This document shows, piece by piece, positions 2,755 to 52,255 of a DNA stretch of 64,000 bases (within the stretch, counting starts at the first letter, position 1; every line of letters begins with the position of its first letter). This stretch comes from Eledone cirrhosa (lineage: Eukaryota): the NCBI GenBank assembly GCA_964016885.1, contig OZ024747.1:1426001-1490000 (forward strand), given 5' to 3'. The notes under the pieces were generated by a model. That model saw only the letters and a program-made list of their open reading frames with translations. It ran no database searches and was not told where the DNA came from. Made by a program: the position numbers and the translations under genes.

Positions 2755-3423
2755 TGTGTATATATATACACATATATATACATACATATATATATACACA
2801 CACATATATATATACATGTGTATATGTATATATTGTGTACAAACGCCTTTTAATCCGATGTATAAACTAAGGTTCATACAATTTGAATGGTACCGTCTAT
2901 ACCCCCTCCCCTAATCACTCTATTACCACCAATACAATCACCCCCCCCCCCACCTCTTTCTTATACTTTCTGTCTGTCAGTCGGATCCTATCTAATAATC
3001 TATCATTTCCTAATTCTCTCGCTAACATACAACATATTCGCTTTCGACAGTTCTCAAAATGGCGGCGTCAAGCTATTTGTGTATACGGACGAAATGTAAA
3101 AGATATATAGAAAGCTTTCCTATAAAAGACATTACAACAACAGTTATGCATTTATATAAATGGTGATGGTGGAGGTGGTTAAACTGAAACCGTTAAGTGT
3201 ATAATCGTTTGTGTTTATTTAAGAGAACGCTATCGGGTATTTTAATCGCTCACCCTGTTCGGTCTATGAAACCTACTTAGTATAGCCATCTTCACACACC
3301 CAACACATTACACTTTCTATAACTCTTTCTCATCTTGTGTCATCGCATATCAGTCGATCGGTGGTGGCGCTGGGAGAAAGGATGTTCAGTGACACACACA
3401 CACACATGCTCACACTCACACAC

Positions 3424-3455
<32 letters not shown>

Positions 3456-3468
3456 GCTCACACACATG

Positions 3469-3505
<37 letters not shown>

Positions 3506-3796
3506 TCACACACACACACACACACACACATGCACAAACACAAAGGTACGCACGCACGTACGCTCACATATATTTGTGTGTAATATATAAATGTATGTAA
3601 ATGTATATATATATATACAAATAAAATATATACAAATATATACAAATAAAATACATATGTGTGGGTGGGTGGGTGGGTGTAAAAGTATAACAAAAATAAC
3701 AAAAACAAACGGCACAGTACATGGAAGAAATATATACGTATATATATAATTTTAATTTCAAAGATAAAGAACTCAATACATTTTAAATGTGATGTT

Positions 3797-3858
<62 letters not shown>

Positions 3859-4889
3859 TGACATTTAAAATGTATTGAGTTCTTTATCTTTGAAATTATA
3901 TATATATATATATATATGTATATAAAACATGAGAAGAAAGAATACTGCATGGTTGCACATGGGTTACATATGATAAAAATAGTCCTTCGTCAGTGATTTG
4001 CCAACCAGCATTGATATTTCATCGCATTAAAAATCATATACCTCAGGTTGGTGCGAGCAATAACTAAAAAAAGCTATTGGGACAAGTAAATCGCGTAAAG
4101 CGAGTGAGACAAGTAAACAACATAGAAGGATGAAAGCAACGCAAAGATGGGAATAAACAAGCAACATGGTTATCCGGTCAGCATAAGCTGGGTGGATTTC
4201 ATGAGCGATCAAGATACAGACCGTCGGACGTGAGTGAGATGTGAGCAAGAAGAGAACCCACTACTAGCCAAACGGGAGGAAGTGAGAAGGGGAGAATATA
4301 TATACATATATATAAATTTAGAGGCGGCCAACTCTTCCCTGTGTCAGCACAACGTTATAAGAAGTCAAAATAATACATATACTGGGTGGTTGAAAAGAAC
4401 CTCCCTATTGAAAAATACTGATAACTGTTGGCCCACTTTGATTGGCACAACATCAATGGCCCCATATTCATGCCAGATGAGGTCTTCTGTCTCAATTGGA
4501 GGAACTATTCCTCATGGACTGACCAACGTACAACGAGTTTACTGATGAAGTCAGTCTAGGATAAACCCAGACTATTACAAAAACTGATGAACAATGCTGG
4601 GGCCCATGTAGAATGTTAATACATTTACATTTCCCGACCCCTTTAACATGAGAGGCAAAGCTAACCTCGGCGAGATTTGAACCTGGAACGTAAGGAACGT
4701 AACTATATGCCACAAAGCATGTTGTCCGAAACTCTACCAATACTAGCAATCCACCTCCCTCACATCACCTATAATCAGTTGGTATAACCCTCAGTCCACA
4801 GGACGAATTTGGTACAAAGTAGTTCCACAACAAATTAACAAACCATAGTTGAGGACACGTGTTTCACCCGAAGGATACTTCAACCGGTC

Positions 4890-5075
4890 TCTCTCTCTCT
4901 ATATATTTGTATATATATATAACACTACTAACCTCTCTCTATATATATTTGTATATATATATAACACTACTAACCTCTCTCTCTATATATTTGTATATAT
5001 AACACTACTAACCTCTCTCTCTATATATTTGTATATATATATATATAACACTACTAACCTCTCTCTATATATATT

Positions 5076-5138
<63 letters not shown>

Positions 5139-5209
5139 CACTACTAACCTGTCTCTCTATATATTTGTATATATATATAAAACACTACTAACCTCTCTCT
5201 CTATATATT

Positions 5210-5286
<77 letters not shown>

Positions 5287-5451
5287 CACTACTAACCTGT
5301 CTCTCTATATATTTGTATATATATATATATATAACACTACTAACCTCTCTCTATATATATTTGTATATATATATATATAACACTACTAACCTCTCTCTCT
5401 ATATATTTGTATATATATATAAAACACTACTAACCTCTCTCTCTATATATT

Positions 5452-5486
<35 letters not shown>

Positions 5487-5557
5487 CACTACTAACCTGT
5501 CTCTCTATATATTTGTATATATATATAAAACACTACTAACCTGTCTCTCTATATATT

Positions 5558-5594
<37 letters not shown>

Positions 5595-5711
5595 CACTAC
5601 TAACCTGTCTCTCTATATATTTGTATATATATATATATAACACTACTAACCTGTCTCTCTATATATTTGTATATATATATAAAACACTACTAACCTGTCT
5701 CTCTATATATT

Positions 5712-5772
<61 letters not shown>

Positions 5773-5823
5773 TACTAACCTGTCTCTCTATATATTTGTA
5801 TATATATATAAAACACTACTAAC
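4890..5823 (-). repeat. Tandem array of the exon 2 3' end plus 5' splice site, interleaved with (TA)n
   Basis: 16 extra copies of aacactactaacct(g/c)tctct(ct)atatatttg(ta)n, i.e. AGAGA(C/G)AG|GTTAGTAGTGT on the minus strand. Confidence 0.92.
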
Positions 5824-6011
5824 CTGTCTCTCTGTCAGTTGAAGTAACTTAGCAAGACGTTTCCTCTCAGGCGGAGAAAGATATTTCTGGGTTTCGAACT
5901 TCTTCTCCAGTTCAACGGTTTGGTCGTTTGAAAACCTCACCTGTCCGCCCTTCCGTTTGTGGAGTGGTCTCTGCATGAAATGGTTCCATAGTAGCGGTGT
6001 CTTTGATGCAA
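5824..6011 (-). CDS. Hhex: Hhex coding exon 2 (homeodomain helices 1-2)
   Basis: Acceptor ttacag|TT; (V)[62 protein letters not shown]; donor CAG|GTTAGT. Near-identical to the HHEX homeodomain, with the same ERQ|VKTWF intron position. The VKTWFQNRR exon was not found in the window. Confidence 0.96.
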
Positions 6012-6025
6012 CTGTAACACACAGA

Positions 6026-6082
<57 letters not shown>

Positions 6083-6087
<5 letters not shown>

Positions 6088-6220
6088 GAGGAGGTGTGCT
6101 GAAATGTTCCTAGATTTAGGTAAAAAAAACCAAAAAAAAAACCGGAGGATCAGTTAATTATAATTTTATTCAACATATTCCCCTCTCAGATTCACACTTA
6201 TTTCAGCGGTTCTTCAGTAG
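6083..6220 (+). mobile_element. Tc1/mariner-like transposon end remnant
   Basis: TA followed by ..GAGGTGTGCTGAAATGTTCCT resembles a mariner TIR; no partner end seen. Confidence 0.4.
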
Positions 6221-6407
6221 AGAGACTATTCAGCCTTAATAATAATAATTGTTTCTACTTTTGACACAAGGCCAGCAATAGCCCAGTGTATCACTGGTAC
6301 ATTATTTTATCGACCCCGTAAGGATGAAAGGCAAAGTTAACCTCGGCGGGATTAATAATGATAATAATATATAAATATATAAGATGTAAGAATAAAACCG
6401 TCTCTTT

Positions 6408-6462
<55 letters not shown>

Positions 6463-6553
6463 TATATATATATACGAAACAGAAAATTTGAGGAGACGGG
6501 CTGGGCGGAAAATACATTTTTTTAGAGAAAAATAACAGGTCCATTCATGTTGC

Positions 6554-6628
<75 letters not shown>

Positions 6629-6824
6629 AGAGATATATATATAGAAAGAGAGGGGAAAGGGAGTGTGTGTGTGCGCGCGACCAAAATCCGAAGAGGGCTC
6701 GATAAGTATTGTATATATATATATATATATATAAACCCGTAAAGCAAATATTTATTATTAATAAAGAATTTCTGCTTTCACTCTATACGGGATCTTCTGA
6801 AACTGAGAAAAGATAACACACACT

Positions 6825-6867
<43 letters not shown>

Positions 6868-7138
6868 GTATGAATGGAATCTCCAGAAGATCCCATATTG
6901 GGTGAAAGCAGAAATTATTTGCTTAAATTTTAATCTGTACTAATAATTTATGATCTACCTGGTCCCTGTATCACAGACTATCAATGTACATACATACATA
7001 TACATATATATATATATATGTGTGTATGTGTGTGTGTGTATATATGTGTATATACATATCACTGAATATTGTAATTAACAAGTGACGGTATGGGTCATCT
7101 AAAGAAATAGCTTCAAATTATATGTGTGTGTGTGTGTG

Positions 7139-7169
<31 letters not shown>

Positions 7170-7316
7170 TTTTGTGTGTGTGCCTCTCTGTTTGTGTGTG
7201 TGCCTGTGCGTGTGTGTGTCTCTCTCTCTCTATGTGCCTGTGTGCGTGTCTCTCTGTGTGTGTGTCTCTGTGTGTGTGTGTCTGTGTGTGTGTGTGTCTC
7301 TGTGTGTGTGTGTCTC

Positions 7317-7435
<119 letters not shown>

Positions 7436-7646
7436 CTGCTTCTTTAAACTCTTCCAGTAGTGTTTCCGCCATGATAAGAAACTTGTCACCGAATGTTCAA
7501 TAAGCCAGGACTTGTGTCAGATCTTGCTGAGCTTACACAGGAAACTTTCCCGGGACCACATTGGCAATTTCCTAAATACTTTTGTAGAGGTCAACTTCCG
7601 CTTAGACCCACAAAAAACAAACTGTATCTCTACATAGTATTCTATT

Positions 7647-7701
<55 letters not shown>

Positions 7702-8320
7702 CACACAACACACACACACACACCCGCAACACACACACACACCCACAACACACACACACGTATGTAATGTATATGTCAGTGGCGGTGGAACTGGGGGCGG
7801 GGCATGTCCCCCTCCAATAATATTTTCTCCCCAAACTACCAAAACCAGGATATGTGCTACCATTTATGTAGATGTTATGTTTATCTCATATCGAGGTTTT
7901 CTCACCATTTTAGAATGCAATGAGCTAAACTAATCACTACAACTAAATTGCCCCCACCTACAATTCAGAAAACCCTCCTGTATGTATATTCATTTATGTT
8001 TTGTGGTTCACTAATAGCTAGAACAGGTCATTCCATTCAGTTAACCACAATGTATTTGTAGTAAAGCACTCTACGTTACGCAACTCATCCATCGTTGATG
8101 TTGAATCCCGTGGTGCAAGAACGGAGTTCAGGAGGCCGGAATGGTAATATTCCTTCAAACGTTTATTGTTGCAAATAGAACTTTTAAGGAATGTTACCAT
8201 TCCGGCCTCCTCTTATTTTAATCAAACTATATATATATGCCCCCCCCCCCACTCTCAAAAGCCTGAACTTAATAAACTCTTATTTGTACTGCCTCTCTGT
8301 TTTTGTTCCCGTTCAAGTTT

Positions 8321-8375
<55 letters not shown>

Positions 8376-9654
8376 TACCATTAAAGCCCGGCGTTGCTCG
8401 GGGTCAGTAAGTTACCAAAGTTAGGTTGCACCACCCATTTTATGGCAGCACTTTTTTGTCTGCCAGGCACTGGGTGAATGAATTGCAGACCTGGACTGCC
8501 GAAGCAGGAGCTGCGCCAGCAGTGACAATTGTAGTTTCACCTATGGATATTATCTCTGTGCAAAGAAGTGTTGAAATTTATTGTTTCACAGTACTTGCGC
8601 AACACGCACGTAGACGATGCCAGCCGAACAACAAAGCTGCGATGGAGTTGTTCTGCATGGTTGTCTAATGTGTGTTTTCTAAATTTAAGACAGTAGGGAG
8701 GGGTGTGATATGGGGGAGAGTTAGCTGCTGTTTCTAGCAGGTTTAGTGACTTCATAGAGGATATGTTTTCTAAATTTAAGACAGTAGGGAGTGGTGTGAT
8801 ATGGGGGAGAGTTAGCTGCTGTTTCTAGCAGGTTTAGTGACATCATAGAGGATATTATTGTGTATAGTAAATGAACTGATACTTCTTTCTTCCACGTTCG
8901 TTGATAGATGTTTTAAAAAAGATTTATCGCTATTTTTGTTGTTGTTGAATAAATTTATCTGTTGCTTTTGAATAATTGTTGTTTCGTAAGAAATGTAATA
9001 ATTTCTCTTTGTCATTGAAGTAAATAAATGTTTGACCGTTCCACACTCAAAAACAAACGTTCACTCTCTCCCTCTCACTCTCTCTCTTAAAGTTTGTAAG
9101 TTTAATCATCATCATCATCATCATTATCTATAAAAGGCAGATTGTTGTTGTTGTGTGTGTGTGCATGTTCCATGTTTATATTCGATAAAACTACATACAT
9201 GCTGCAACTTTCTCTGATGAAGGGGAGTAGAGAGAGGTAATCTGATTGTATTAGAGGGGTAAAGCGTCATGTATTTATTTTTATCGATTATTTCCGTAAG
9301 TTAGACCATTTACAACATTCTTACAGACTTTGAGTCGAATCGGTTTGAAATTGTGCAAATGTATAAACATGGAACATGCACACACACACACACATACACA
9401 CACAACAACAACAACAATCTGCCTTTTATAGATGATGATACGTACATACATACATACAACCTTGCCACCAGGAAGGTGGCTGGTCAAAAAATATACTCGA
9501 AATTAAGAGAAAGAGATAACATACATACATACATTTACATCAATCCATCCATATATGTGTGTAAGCCGGTGTGTATATATATATACATACATATATACAT
9601 ACATTTACATCAATCCATCCATATCTGTGTGTAAGCCGGTGTGTATATATATAC

Positions 9655-10250: not shown

Positions 10251-10471
10251 GACATACACACATACATATGTATATACATACATTTACATCAATCCATCCA
10301 TATCTGTGTGTAAGCCGGTGTGTATATATATATACATATATATATATACATACATACATCCATATCTGTGTGTAAGCCGGTGTGTATATTATCCTGATAG
10401 AGAAAGAGACTGAGAATAAGGAGGGAGTCGAGTAAAAGATACACTGCTTAATATGGCAGTTAAAGACGTCA

Positions 10472-11492
10472 AGACCAGCTCATATCTACCCAGCCATCTA
10501 CCCAACACCAGTTCATATCTACTCAGCTGTCTACCCAACACCAGCTCATATCTACCCAGCCGTCTACCCAACACCAGCTCATACCTACCCAGCCATCTAC
10601 CCAACACCAGCTCATATCTACCCAACCATCTACCCAACACCAGCTCATATCTACCCATCCATCTACCCAACACCAGCTCATATCTACCCAGCCATCTACC
10701 CAAAACCAGCTCATACCTACCCAGCCATCTACCCAACACCAGCTCACATCTACCCAACCATCTACCCAACACCAGCTCATATCTACCCAACACCAGCTCA
10801 TATCTACCCAGCCATCTACCCAACACCAGCTCACATCTACCCAGCCATCTACCCAACACCAGCTCATATCTACCCAGCCGTCTACCCAACACCAGCTCAT
10901 ACCTACCCAGCCATCTACCCAACACCAGCTCATATCTACCCAGCCATCTACCCAACACCAGCTCATATCTACCCAGCCATCTACCCAACACCAGCTCATA
11001 TCTACCCATCCATCTACCCAACACCAGCTCATATCTACCCAGCCATCTACCCAACACCAGCTCATATCTACCCAGCCATCTACCCAACACCAGCTCATAT
11101 CTACCCAGCCGTCTACCCAACACCAGCTCATATCTACCCAGCCGTCTACCCAACACCAGCTCATATCTACCCAGCCGTCTACCCAACACCAGCTCATATC
11201 TACCCAGCCATCTACCCAACACCAGCTCATATCTACCCAGCCGTCTACCCAACACCAGCTCATATATACCCAGCCGTCTACCCAACACCAGCTCATATCT
11301 ACCCAGCCATCTACCCAACACCAGCTCATATCTACCCATCCATCTACCCAACACCAGCTCATATCTACCCAGCCATCTACCCAACACCAGCTCATATCTA
11401 CCCATCCATCTACCCAAAACCAGCTCATATCTACCCAGCATCTACCCAACACCAGCTCATATCTACCCATCCATCTACCCAACACCAGCCCC
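10472..11492. repeat. 33-bp minisatellite (~31 copies)
   Basis: Unit CCAGCTCATATCTACCCAGCCATCTACCCAACA. Confidence 0.95.
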
Positions 11493-15692: not shown

Positions 15693-17140
15693 TTCCCCCT
15701 CCAATAGACTGGTTTTTGTGCTGAAATAATACCTGTCTCCCCGCGAGTGTTGAGGGTGACCTTCAATGGAAACCCAAGGCTGACAGTCATCTCAGCCTAT
15801 AGTCTAACCGAGGGAGCCAGTGATGTGAGTGCGGAAGAGTTCCATGAGGGGGTGTGTAGAGCTGTCAACACCACACAAGCACACAACATCCTGCTTGTTT
15901 TGGGGGTCTTCAATGCACATCTGAGTAAGGAGGGCAGTGAAGATCCTTGCTGGTACTTCCATAACAACACCAACCGAAATGGAAGACTACTGAGAGAGAG
16001 ACACCCTGCTGGAAGCGAACTTGATAGCGACCAACCTAAGGTTTAGGAAGAATCCGGGGAAGATGTGGACCTATATCTCAGATATGCACCTGTCCAAGTC
16101 CCAGATTGATTTCATTCTGGTGAGGAAAAAGTGGCGGAATAGTGTTCTGAACACAGAACCATACAACTATTTCGGTACACTGGGTAGTGACCACCGGCTT
16201 GTTATGAGTGAGGTCCGGGTGAGCTCAAGAAAGAGCATGGCTCAGCCCCGGAGAGTAATCTATGACTGGGGAGCTTTCAAGGAAGATGATAAGCTACAGG
16301 AGAGGTTCACAGTGGAAGTGAGGAACAGGTTCAGTGCTCTGTGTGGAGAGACAGAGGAGAGAGAGAGATTGGATGGACTGAGGAGAGTGTGACGAGGAGG
16401 TACGGGCACTTCACCAATGCAGTGGCGGAAGCAAGTGAGATCATGGTGCCGAGGAGAAAGAACAAAAGGAAGCACGTCAGCTCTGCAGACCCAAAAGTGT
16501 GTGCAGCCAGAGAACACCTGAAAGCTGCCAAGGACCAATTCTATGCTGATCCTACGGAGGAGAGGATGGAGACTGTGGAGGTGATGAGGGAAGAACTCTG
16601 TACCGCTTACACTGAGGTCAGAGAGGAGGCACTGATAGAGAAAATCAGAAGTGTGAAGAGAGCGGTTGACAGGTCTGAATGTAAGGAGAGCTGGATGATC
16701 ATCAACGAGATCACAGGGAGGAAGAGAAGGTGTTCGAGTCAGATCCGAAGATAGGAAGAGGAAATGGCTAGACCATTTTAGGACCCTACTAGGAGAGCCG
16801 CCCTCCACAGCCCAGAGCACTGGGGAGATCAGGCGGCTATTTGAAGAACTGGATATTGAGACAGAGCCCTTCACCAGAGAGGAGCTTCAGAGAGCCATCA
16901 AGGAGGGCAAGGCTCATGGAGAAGATGGAGTGGCATCAGAGGTGATAAAGAGGTGTGATTTTGATAATATCATCCTGGGGTTCTGTAACCAGGCGCTGGA
17001 GAAAGGAGTTGCCCCGAATCAGTGGAGGATCAGTAACATCGTCCCAGTGCCAAAGAAGGGAGATCTCTCTAACACCAACAAATACAGAGGGATCTCACTG
17101 CGTCACTTGTGGCAAAGATCCTCAACAGGATGATTCTCAT
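15693..17140 (+). mobile_element. RTE-type LINE fragment (AP endonuclease C-terminus through start of RT), pseudogenised
   Basis: [71 protein letters not shown]; several frameshifts and a stop. Confidence 0.92.
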
Positions 17141-51184: not shown

Positions 51185-52255
51185 CTTTGGAGAAAGAGTT
51201 ATGTCTGTCAACAAAATGATATTCAATAGCAGCACGGCTTGGGTAAGGTGATGGGTAGATATGTGCTAATGGATGTCCTGTATGGTAACTATGGAGGTTA
51301 GTTGGACTATGTAGGTAGGTGCTGCTTGCTGCCATCAACCCGTGGCTGTCGTAAACGGCAACGGGCTTGCAGACGGCTGCTGTGCTGGCTGTTTGCAAAA
51401 GTGCTGGGTTCAACGGTGTAGGTCTCTGAGGTTGATGTTGTTGTTGATGATGATGATCAAGATGATGATTATGATGATTGTGTTGTTGTTGGTGTTGATG
51501 TTGGTATTGGTGTGACTGTTGTTGTTGTTCTTGTTGGTGTTCATTTTGTTGTTGTTGTTCTTGTAGTAGTAATTGGTGTTGGTGAGAGTGATTATGGTGT
51601 TCATTATTGTTGTTGTTAGTCTTACCACTGGTGTTGTTATTGTTGTTGTTGTTATGGTACTGATGATGGAAGAGCAGGTGGTGATGGTGGTGGTGGAGAA
51701 GCAGGTGGTTGTGATTGTTATTGTTGCTGTTGTTATTGTTATGTAACAGATGATACGGGTAGAATAAGGGTGGTGGTGGCATTGGTTGTGGTGGGGGAGA
51801 TTGAGGACTGGGGCAGCCCCCACCGACGTCGCTACCCGCGTTACTTCCAACCGTACTACGTCCTGTACTACAACTCATAGGGGTACATACCCGTCCATGT
51901 GGGGTGTTGTCTGGTGAGGGTACTGTTGTAGCTGCAAGTGGTGATGGTGTTGATGATGATGATGATAATGAAGATGAAGATGATAATGATGGTGATGATG
52001 ATGATGGTAGTGATGATATAATAGCTGTAGTCGCTAGAACTGTAGAGGTGGTTGTAATATTGTTGTTGTTGTTGGTGGTGGCTGTTGTGTTATTACCCAA
52101 TATATCATCGATTAAAAAAGAAGTATGGCCACTACCACCTCCTCCACCACCTCCTCCACCACCACCGTCGCCACCACCGTCGCCACCGCCACCGCCACCT
52201 CCACCACCACCTCCACTACAATGTTTTGAGTGGCAATCATTATTACTATTATTAC

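Follow-up and report, generated by a model that had tools for sequence, protein, structure and literature searches.

A 5' splice site that is followed, in its own intron, by many further copies of itself raises the question of whether those copies take part in splicing or are carried along as a repeat. Such a locus lies in a stretch of 64,000 nucleotides from the cephalopod Eledone cirrhosa (contig OZ024747.1, positions 1,426,001 to 1,490,000; hereafter the window). A sequence-only reading of the window had described the splice donor of Hhex exon 2 as tandemly amplified and had offered either a U1-loading array or a source of unproductive isoforms and length polymorphism as its meaning.

The host gene

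The host gene is a complete, single-copy, four-exon Hhex on the minus strand (Table 1). Exon 2 was placed by translation and by tblastn with the cephalopod Hhex proteins P0004 and P0005, and its protein is 88-95% identical to proteins named HHEX, the closest named one being that of the octopod Argonauta hians (93%). The earlier identification of the exon upstream of the array as the Hhex homeodomain exon is therefore upheld by the translation and by the best named protein matches. The orthologue is recognised by an Hhex-type homeodomain with the intron at ERQ/VKTWF and a 51-nt exon 3, together with an N-terminal motif and an acidic tail, all of which are present. The N-terminal motif, FLIDDILG at 52127-52095, which we take to be an eh1-like repressor motif, aligns to P0005. 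Both exon 3 and exon 4 are intact, their splice sites are normal, and the assembly holds only one Hhex, the next homeobox matches being 45-46% identical.

The place of the real donor of exon 2 within the homeodomain, ERQ|VKTWF, is a conserved one for an intron and is shared with the spliced relatives P0004, P0005 and P0006. The metazoan 5' splice site consensus is MAG|GTRAGT, and the fit of the real donor to it is given in Table 1. The TERQ at the end of the exon, which is followed by VKTWF after splicing, is common to mollusc Hhex proteins, and this exon end is therefore older than the array described below.

Table 1. Positions of the Hhex exons and introns, the donor array and the adjoining repeat (window coordinates unless another locus is named)
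Feature	Position or length	Strand	Description
Hhex exon 1, 3' part	51185..52127	-	Ends at 51185; donor AAG|GTAAGA; placed by tblastn and junction
Hhex intron 1	~45 kb	-	From tblastn and junction sequences
Hhex exon 2, 188 nt	5824..6011	-	Homeodomain helices 1-2; acceptor TTACAG|TT; donor CAG|GTTAGT; ends ACA GAG AGA CAG (TERQ)
Real 5' splice site CAG|GTTAGT	5818..5826	-	8/9 positions fit the consensus; T at +3
Hhex intron 2	~11.6 kb	-	From tblastn and the position of exon 3
Hhex exon 3, 51 nt	L007:4256-4206, outside the window		VKTWFQNRRAKWRRLKQ; donor CAG|GTATGT
Hhex exon 4	L008, from ~6888 downward		Open, with a D/E-rich acidic tail; ends in a stop
Boundary-spanning minisatellite, exon 2/intron 2 of Hhex	4890..5833	-	17 units of 38-104 nt each
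Proximal decoy-donor block	5496..5782	-	Six decoys, all CAG|GTTAGT: 5779, 5694, 5650, 5604, 5540, 5496
Distal decoy-donor block	4927..5437	-	Ten decoys: eight GAG|GTTAGT and two CAG|GTTAGT (5296, 5148)
Terminal (GA)6 tract closing the array	4888..4899	-	From the sequence; putative role in seeding
Dispersed-repeat copy adjoining the distal array end	4777..4884	+	Copies on C17 and C4 at 82-87% identity; alignment ends at 4884

Structure, specificity and age of the array

The 13-base core AGGTTAGTAGTGT has 17 exact matches, every one on the minus strand, in the range 4922-5825. No match was obtained across 100 dinucleotide-preserving shuffles, and the chance expectation is 0. The 17 donors are the real exon 2 donor and 16 extra copies (hereafter decoys), a copy number taken from one genome assembly (Eledone cirrhosa, 3.0 Gb). 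Tandem Repeats Finder (TRF) calls the array at 4891-5833 with a period of 44-46 and ~20-21 copies by its own count. The CAG|GTTAGT context occurs nine times including the real donor (first intron bases 5823 for the real donor, 5779, 5694, 5650, 5604, 5540, 5496, 5296 and 5148), and GAG|GTTAGT eight times (5434, 5390, 5344, 5192, 5058, 5012, 4974 and 4932). The tandem amplification of the donor proposed by the sequence-only reading is thus borne out by the array structure, and its count of 16 applies to the extra copies. Its division into eight CAG and eight GAG copies is correct when the real donor is excluded, the total with the real donor being 17, and its placing of the CAG copies as mostly proximal agrees with units 1-7, all of which have CAG.

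According to the table of the 17 units, each follows the formula AGAGAGA(C/G)AG|GTTAGTAGTGT-T(0,1,3)-(AT)3-36-ACAAAT-(AT)2. Unit 1 is made up of 10 bases from the end of the exon (5833-5824; A GAG AGA CAG) and the first 34 of the intron; 5' of its start, the exon (...CAACTGAC) and the repeats (...AAATATAT) differ. Eight decoys match the real donor from position -10 to at least +11 and over at least 24 bases, including the purine-rich AGAGAGA just upstream of the junction. Variation between the 17 units is confined to C or G at -3, the length of the T run, the length of (AT)n and one AT/AG slip, with no other substitutions, and the non-donor parts of the unit (ACAAATATAT and AGAGAGA) are as invariant as the donor core. 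Since the units differ only by microsatellite slippage and at one C/G position, the array looks young or homogenised. Minisatellites of the type known from intron 7 of human F7 (F7 IVS7) and from the amphioxus 'mirages' are recognised by a head-to-tail array of units of ~10-160 bp and by a first unit that holds the real exon-intron junction. The Hhex array has both features, the former from the TRF period and the units of 38-104 nt and the latter from unit 1; by these sequence criteria it is a boundary-spanning minisatellite.

The same 44-nt unit, T3-(AT)5, recurs at units 1, 3, 6, 8 and 12, and units with long (AT)n lie between these; this looks like the pattern expected of multi-unit unequal exchange. 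Such an ordered mosaic of distinct variants, unlike a collapsed or stuttered copy, also bears on the concern that repetitive, AT-rich reads were mis-assembled and so gave rise to the array or to its copy number and unit order. Tracts of (AT)27-36 are error-prone, which would favour an artefact. The array, however, sits within a contig of 94 Mb, and short-read contigs X1, X2 and X3, from three runs of one Eledone cirrhosa sample, break 14-35 nt below 5818, as expected at the start of a repeat, a weak hint against an artefact. We therefore regard an artefact as highly improbable.

The array is confined to this locus. A 27-mer from the unit has six matches in the 3.0 Gb genome, all of them inside the array, and an 18-mer has 17, of which 16 are inside it, so that a dispersed repeat or a transposon-borne satellite is rejected as the source of the unit. 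The seventeenth 18-mer match lies on C19 (L009:500-517; G000:C19:6064366-6064383, + strand), at the donor AAG|GTTAGTAGTGTTTTAT that ends an EF-hand exon (Pfam EF-hand_6, E 3e-8); no array accompanies that donor, and the match is probably a coincidence.

The dispersed-repeat copy that adjoins the distal end of the array (4777-4884) sets a limit to the short ancestral stretch within which the array expanded. It was rejected as the source of the array itself; it is unlike the unit, and elsewhere its copies are found beside unrelated (TC)n(TA)n tracts in another orientation. This repeat is rarer in the genome than a second, different dispersed repeat at 4624-4775, distal to the array, which gave 3974 first-look candidates genome-wide at 81-88% identity; on C4 the rarer repeat forms an inverted pair ~50 nt apart.

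Other repeats are frequent around exon 2 and in intron 1. Long pure microsatellites, (AC)75 and (TG)137 among them, crowd both sides of the exon (3000-9000), and an (AT)26 tract at 6030-6082 lies 19 nt upstream of its acceptor, the pyrimidine tract of which directly follows the (AT)n run. Intron 1 contains a minisatellite at 10470-11489 (33-bp unit, ~31 copies, 93-96% matches), in which several frames are open only through periodicity, and two tandem copies of a 91-bp unit at 8673-8855 (97% matches). It also contains, at 15708-17133 on the + strand, three overlapping open frames of 112-144 residues, in which no Pfam family was found at E 0.01.

As to how the array arose, AGAGAGA, with which the exon closes, and the terminal (GA)6 tract form a pair of short direct repeats, which would be the usual substrate for a first slippage duplication. 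The first duplication may accordingly have been a slipped mispairing or unequal exchange between AGAGAGA and a (GA)n tract that lay ~40 nt inside intron 2. The array would then have been enlarged by additional unequal exchanges, each involving one to several units, and the internal (AT)n tracts would have slipped independently during this growth.

Relatives offer some view of the age of the array. In a public protein collection, P0002 and P0122 are genomic read-throughs of the Hhex exon 2 donor from cephalopod-like animals. P0002, the DNA of a relative translated through the donor, is 95% identical over exon 2 and continues with ~69 non-repetitive codons after ERQ, so that this relative would have no such array at its donor; P0122, a translation of the same kind, continues with 20 non-repetitive residues after ERQ. 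The read-through tail of Eledone cirrhosa exon 2 was absent from all 117 related proteins compared. A contig from a close relative (X4, organism B), which differs from exon 2 at 4 of 198 nt, continues for a further 140 nt and hints, though weakly, at a less repetitive array site in organism B. Since P0002 and P0122 are non-repetitive at this position and the units of the array are near-identical, the comparison points to a young, lineage-specific array.

Possible splicing from the copies

An in-frame TAG lies at 5790-5788 (minus strand), 34-36 nt past the real donor, where it ends the open reading frame 5788..6153; the sequence-only reading had placed the stop of the read-through frame at ~5788, in agreement with this result. 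It had also supposed that use of a distal donor would insert microsatellite sequence between helix 2 and helix 3, which has to be abandoned. Because every decoy transcript would carry this TAG, decoy-spliced products would end before helix 3, and the expectation that any decoy use is unproductive holds at the level of sequence. A premature stop with exon junctions downstream of it leads to nonsense-mediated decay, a rule that is not established for cephalopods. With two exon junctions still downstream, decoy transcripts are predicted targets of this decay and would be degraded.

A recursive splice site has a polypyrimidine tract and an AG directly before a GT donor, the 3' and 5' sites being juxtaposed. 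The 20 bases before each AG|GT in the array are ATATATAGAGAGA(C/G)AG, purine- and AT-rich without a pyrimidine tract, and recursive splice sites were thus ruled out. In a prediction of local RNA folding, the unpaired probability was 0.017 at the real donor and 0.05-0.38 at the decoys, so that the real donor is not favoured by its structure. A small run from Eledone cirrhosa (X5), possibly RNA-derived, gave one contig of 151 nt at depth 2 over 5916-6013, which stops before the donor.

Given the shared stop, the decoys could act as leaky poison donors: an appreciable part of the Hhex pre-mRNA would be spliced from them into products with the TAG at 5790-5788, which would be degraded or lack helix 3, and the output of the gene would fall with the copy number or the allele. 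The sequence context of eight decoys is exactly that of the real donor, and one premature stop is common to all decoy isoforms, as this explanation would have it. In model substrates, two strong 5' splice sites at least 45 nt apart are reported to be spliced almost wholly from the intron-proximal (downstream) site (PMC3413131); applied to the Hhex array, this rule predicts decoy use. One or two proximal pseudo-sites are likewise described as being used in 6-16 and CBS (PMC1557585). Against it, Hhex is intact and single-copy, so heavy unproductive loss should be selected against, decoy use would extend the 188-nt exon with AT-rich sequence, and the copies in F7, LMNB2 and PDGF are described as silent (PMC1557585). 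The published precedents thus point both ways on decoy use, and for Hhex we consider appreciable leakage unlikely.

A bolder form of the same idea is a polymorphic dosage dial, in which 16 poison donors, each with its own purine-rich element, would compete with the real donor, and the loss of Hhex pre-mRNA to the premature-stop isoform would be set by how many units there are and of which type (CAG or GAG). We hold this to be a long shot. If it were true, the locus would be a natural lophotrochozoan test of the rule that the first 5' splice site wins against the rule that the intron-proximal one does. Polymorphism in array length across individuals is in itself plausible, because the units differ by slippage-type changes and the known arrays of the F7 type are described as VNTRs (PMC1557585).

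The 17 cores are identical while the spacers vary, and this contrast could speak for selection on the donors as U1-binding sites, the 16 copies recruiting U1 snRNP 3' of a short exon and thereby promoting exon definition or reducing premature cleavage and polyadenylation in a long AT-rich intron. Exon 2 is indeed flanked by very long introns (45 kb and 11.6 kb). It is also reported that several alternative 5' splice sites can hold U1 simultaneously (PMC3413131) and that intronic polyadenylation is suppressed by U1 (PMC3826338, PMC6946686). However, ACAAATATAT and AGAGAGA are equally invariant, so that there is no conservation specific to the donor, and CAG has drifted to GAG in half of them. 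The closest read-through relative (P0002) has no array at its donor, and the array bears no sign of age or conservation. The identity of all 17 cores would fit selection on the donors and would be equally expected from youth or homogenisation. In the available text of the reports on the arrays compared (PMC1557585, PMC3087553), such a role is assigned to none of them, and the published cases are treated as tolerated repeats. The suggestion of a U1-loading array, made in the sequence-only reading, consequently finds no support, and we judge it very unlikely.

The array is a locus-specific minisatellite that spans the exon-intron boundary, and we infer that its 16 copies are probably silent passengers removed with the 11.6 kb intron and not a functional device. 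An intact, single-copy Hhex implies that a large share of the transcripts is spliced from the real donor. The spliceosome would pick the most upstream site, as it does in intron 7 of human F7. A point against silence is that nothing in the local sequence marks the real donor among the decoys.

Significance and known donor-reiterating arrays

Human and amphioxus genes already provide examples of such arrays, and the Hhex array is a further case; judged from its sequence, it is not evidence for a new mechanism. We found no paper on the Hhex array in the literature on Hhex and cephalopods (titles and the beginnings of abstracts) or in that on minisatellites and splice donors. The locus adds a clean invertebrate example to the short list of genes with a minisatellite-reiterated splice donor, its 16 decoys placing it among the largest of such arrays, and its host is a single-copy homeobox gene that looks essential. 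In practice, the locus is of value as a natural substrate for the study of how the spliceosome selects one of many identical 5' splice sites. It also carries a warning for the annotation of repeat-rich cephalopod genomes, as a gene predictor could take any of the nine identical CAG|GTTAGT sites.

Among the systems compared, intron 7 of human F7 is described as having a first 37-bp unit that spans the exon-intron boundary and 5-9 identical donors, of which the most upstream is the only one in use (Borensztajn et al. 2006; PMC1557585). As in Hhex, the first unit spans the boundary (with 4 exon bases in F7 and 10 in Hhex) and identical pseudo-donors lie in the intron. The two differ in that a unit with a fixed length of 37 bp is present in 5-9 copies in F7, whereas the 17 units of Hhex range over 38-104 nt and enclose an (AT)n microsatellite; in that the F7 donor is weak (UGG/gugggu), whereas the Hhex donor agrees with the consensus at 8 of 9 positions; and in that the host is a human gene in the one case and a homeobox gene of a cephalopod in the other. 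The silence of the pseudo-sites and the copy-number polymorphism of F7 were shown by experiment, whereas for Hhex the former is predicted and the latter plausible.

The human genes 6-16 (interferon-inducible), CBS (intron 13), LMNB2 and PDGF are reported to have their donor reiterated 10-25 times in the following intron, which is comparable to the 16 extra copies in Hhex. One or two proximal pseudo-sites are used besides the real donor in 6-16 and CBS, and none in LMNB2 and PDGF according to the available text (PMC1557585). In contrast to these genes, every decoy isoform of Hhex would carry one shared premature stop.

An invertebrate parallel is with the 'mirage' minisatellites of amphioxus (Adh3 and the globins BflGb6 and BflGb9), which are likewise tandem duplications of exon-intron boundaries. 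They are described as length-unstable and concerted within a cluster, with normal splicing undisturbed (PMC3087553). The units of the globin mirages are 150-160 bp long and contain more exon sequence, whereas those of Hhex are short and mostly microsatellite, and mirages occur at acceptor and donor sides, whereas the Hhex array is at a donor.
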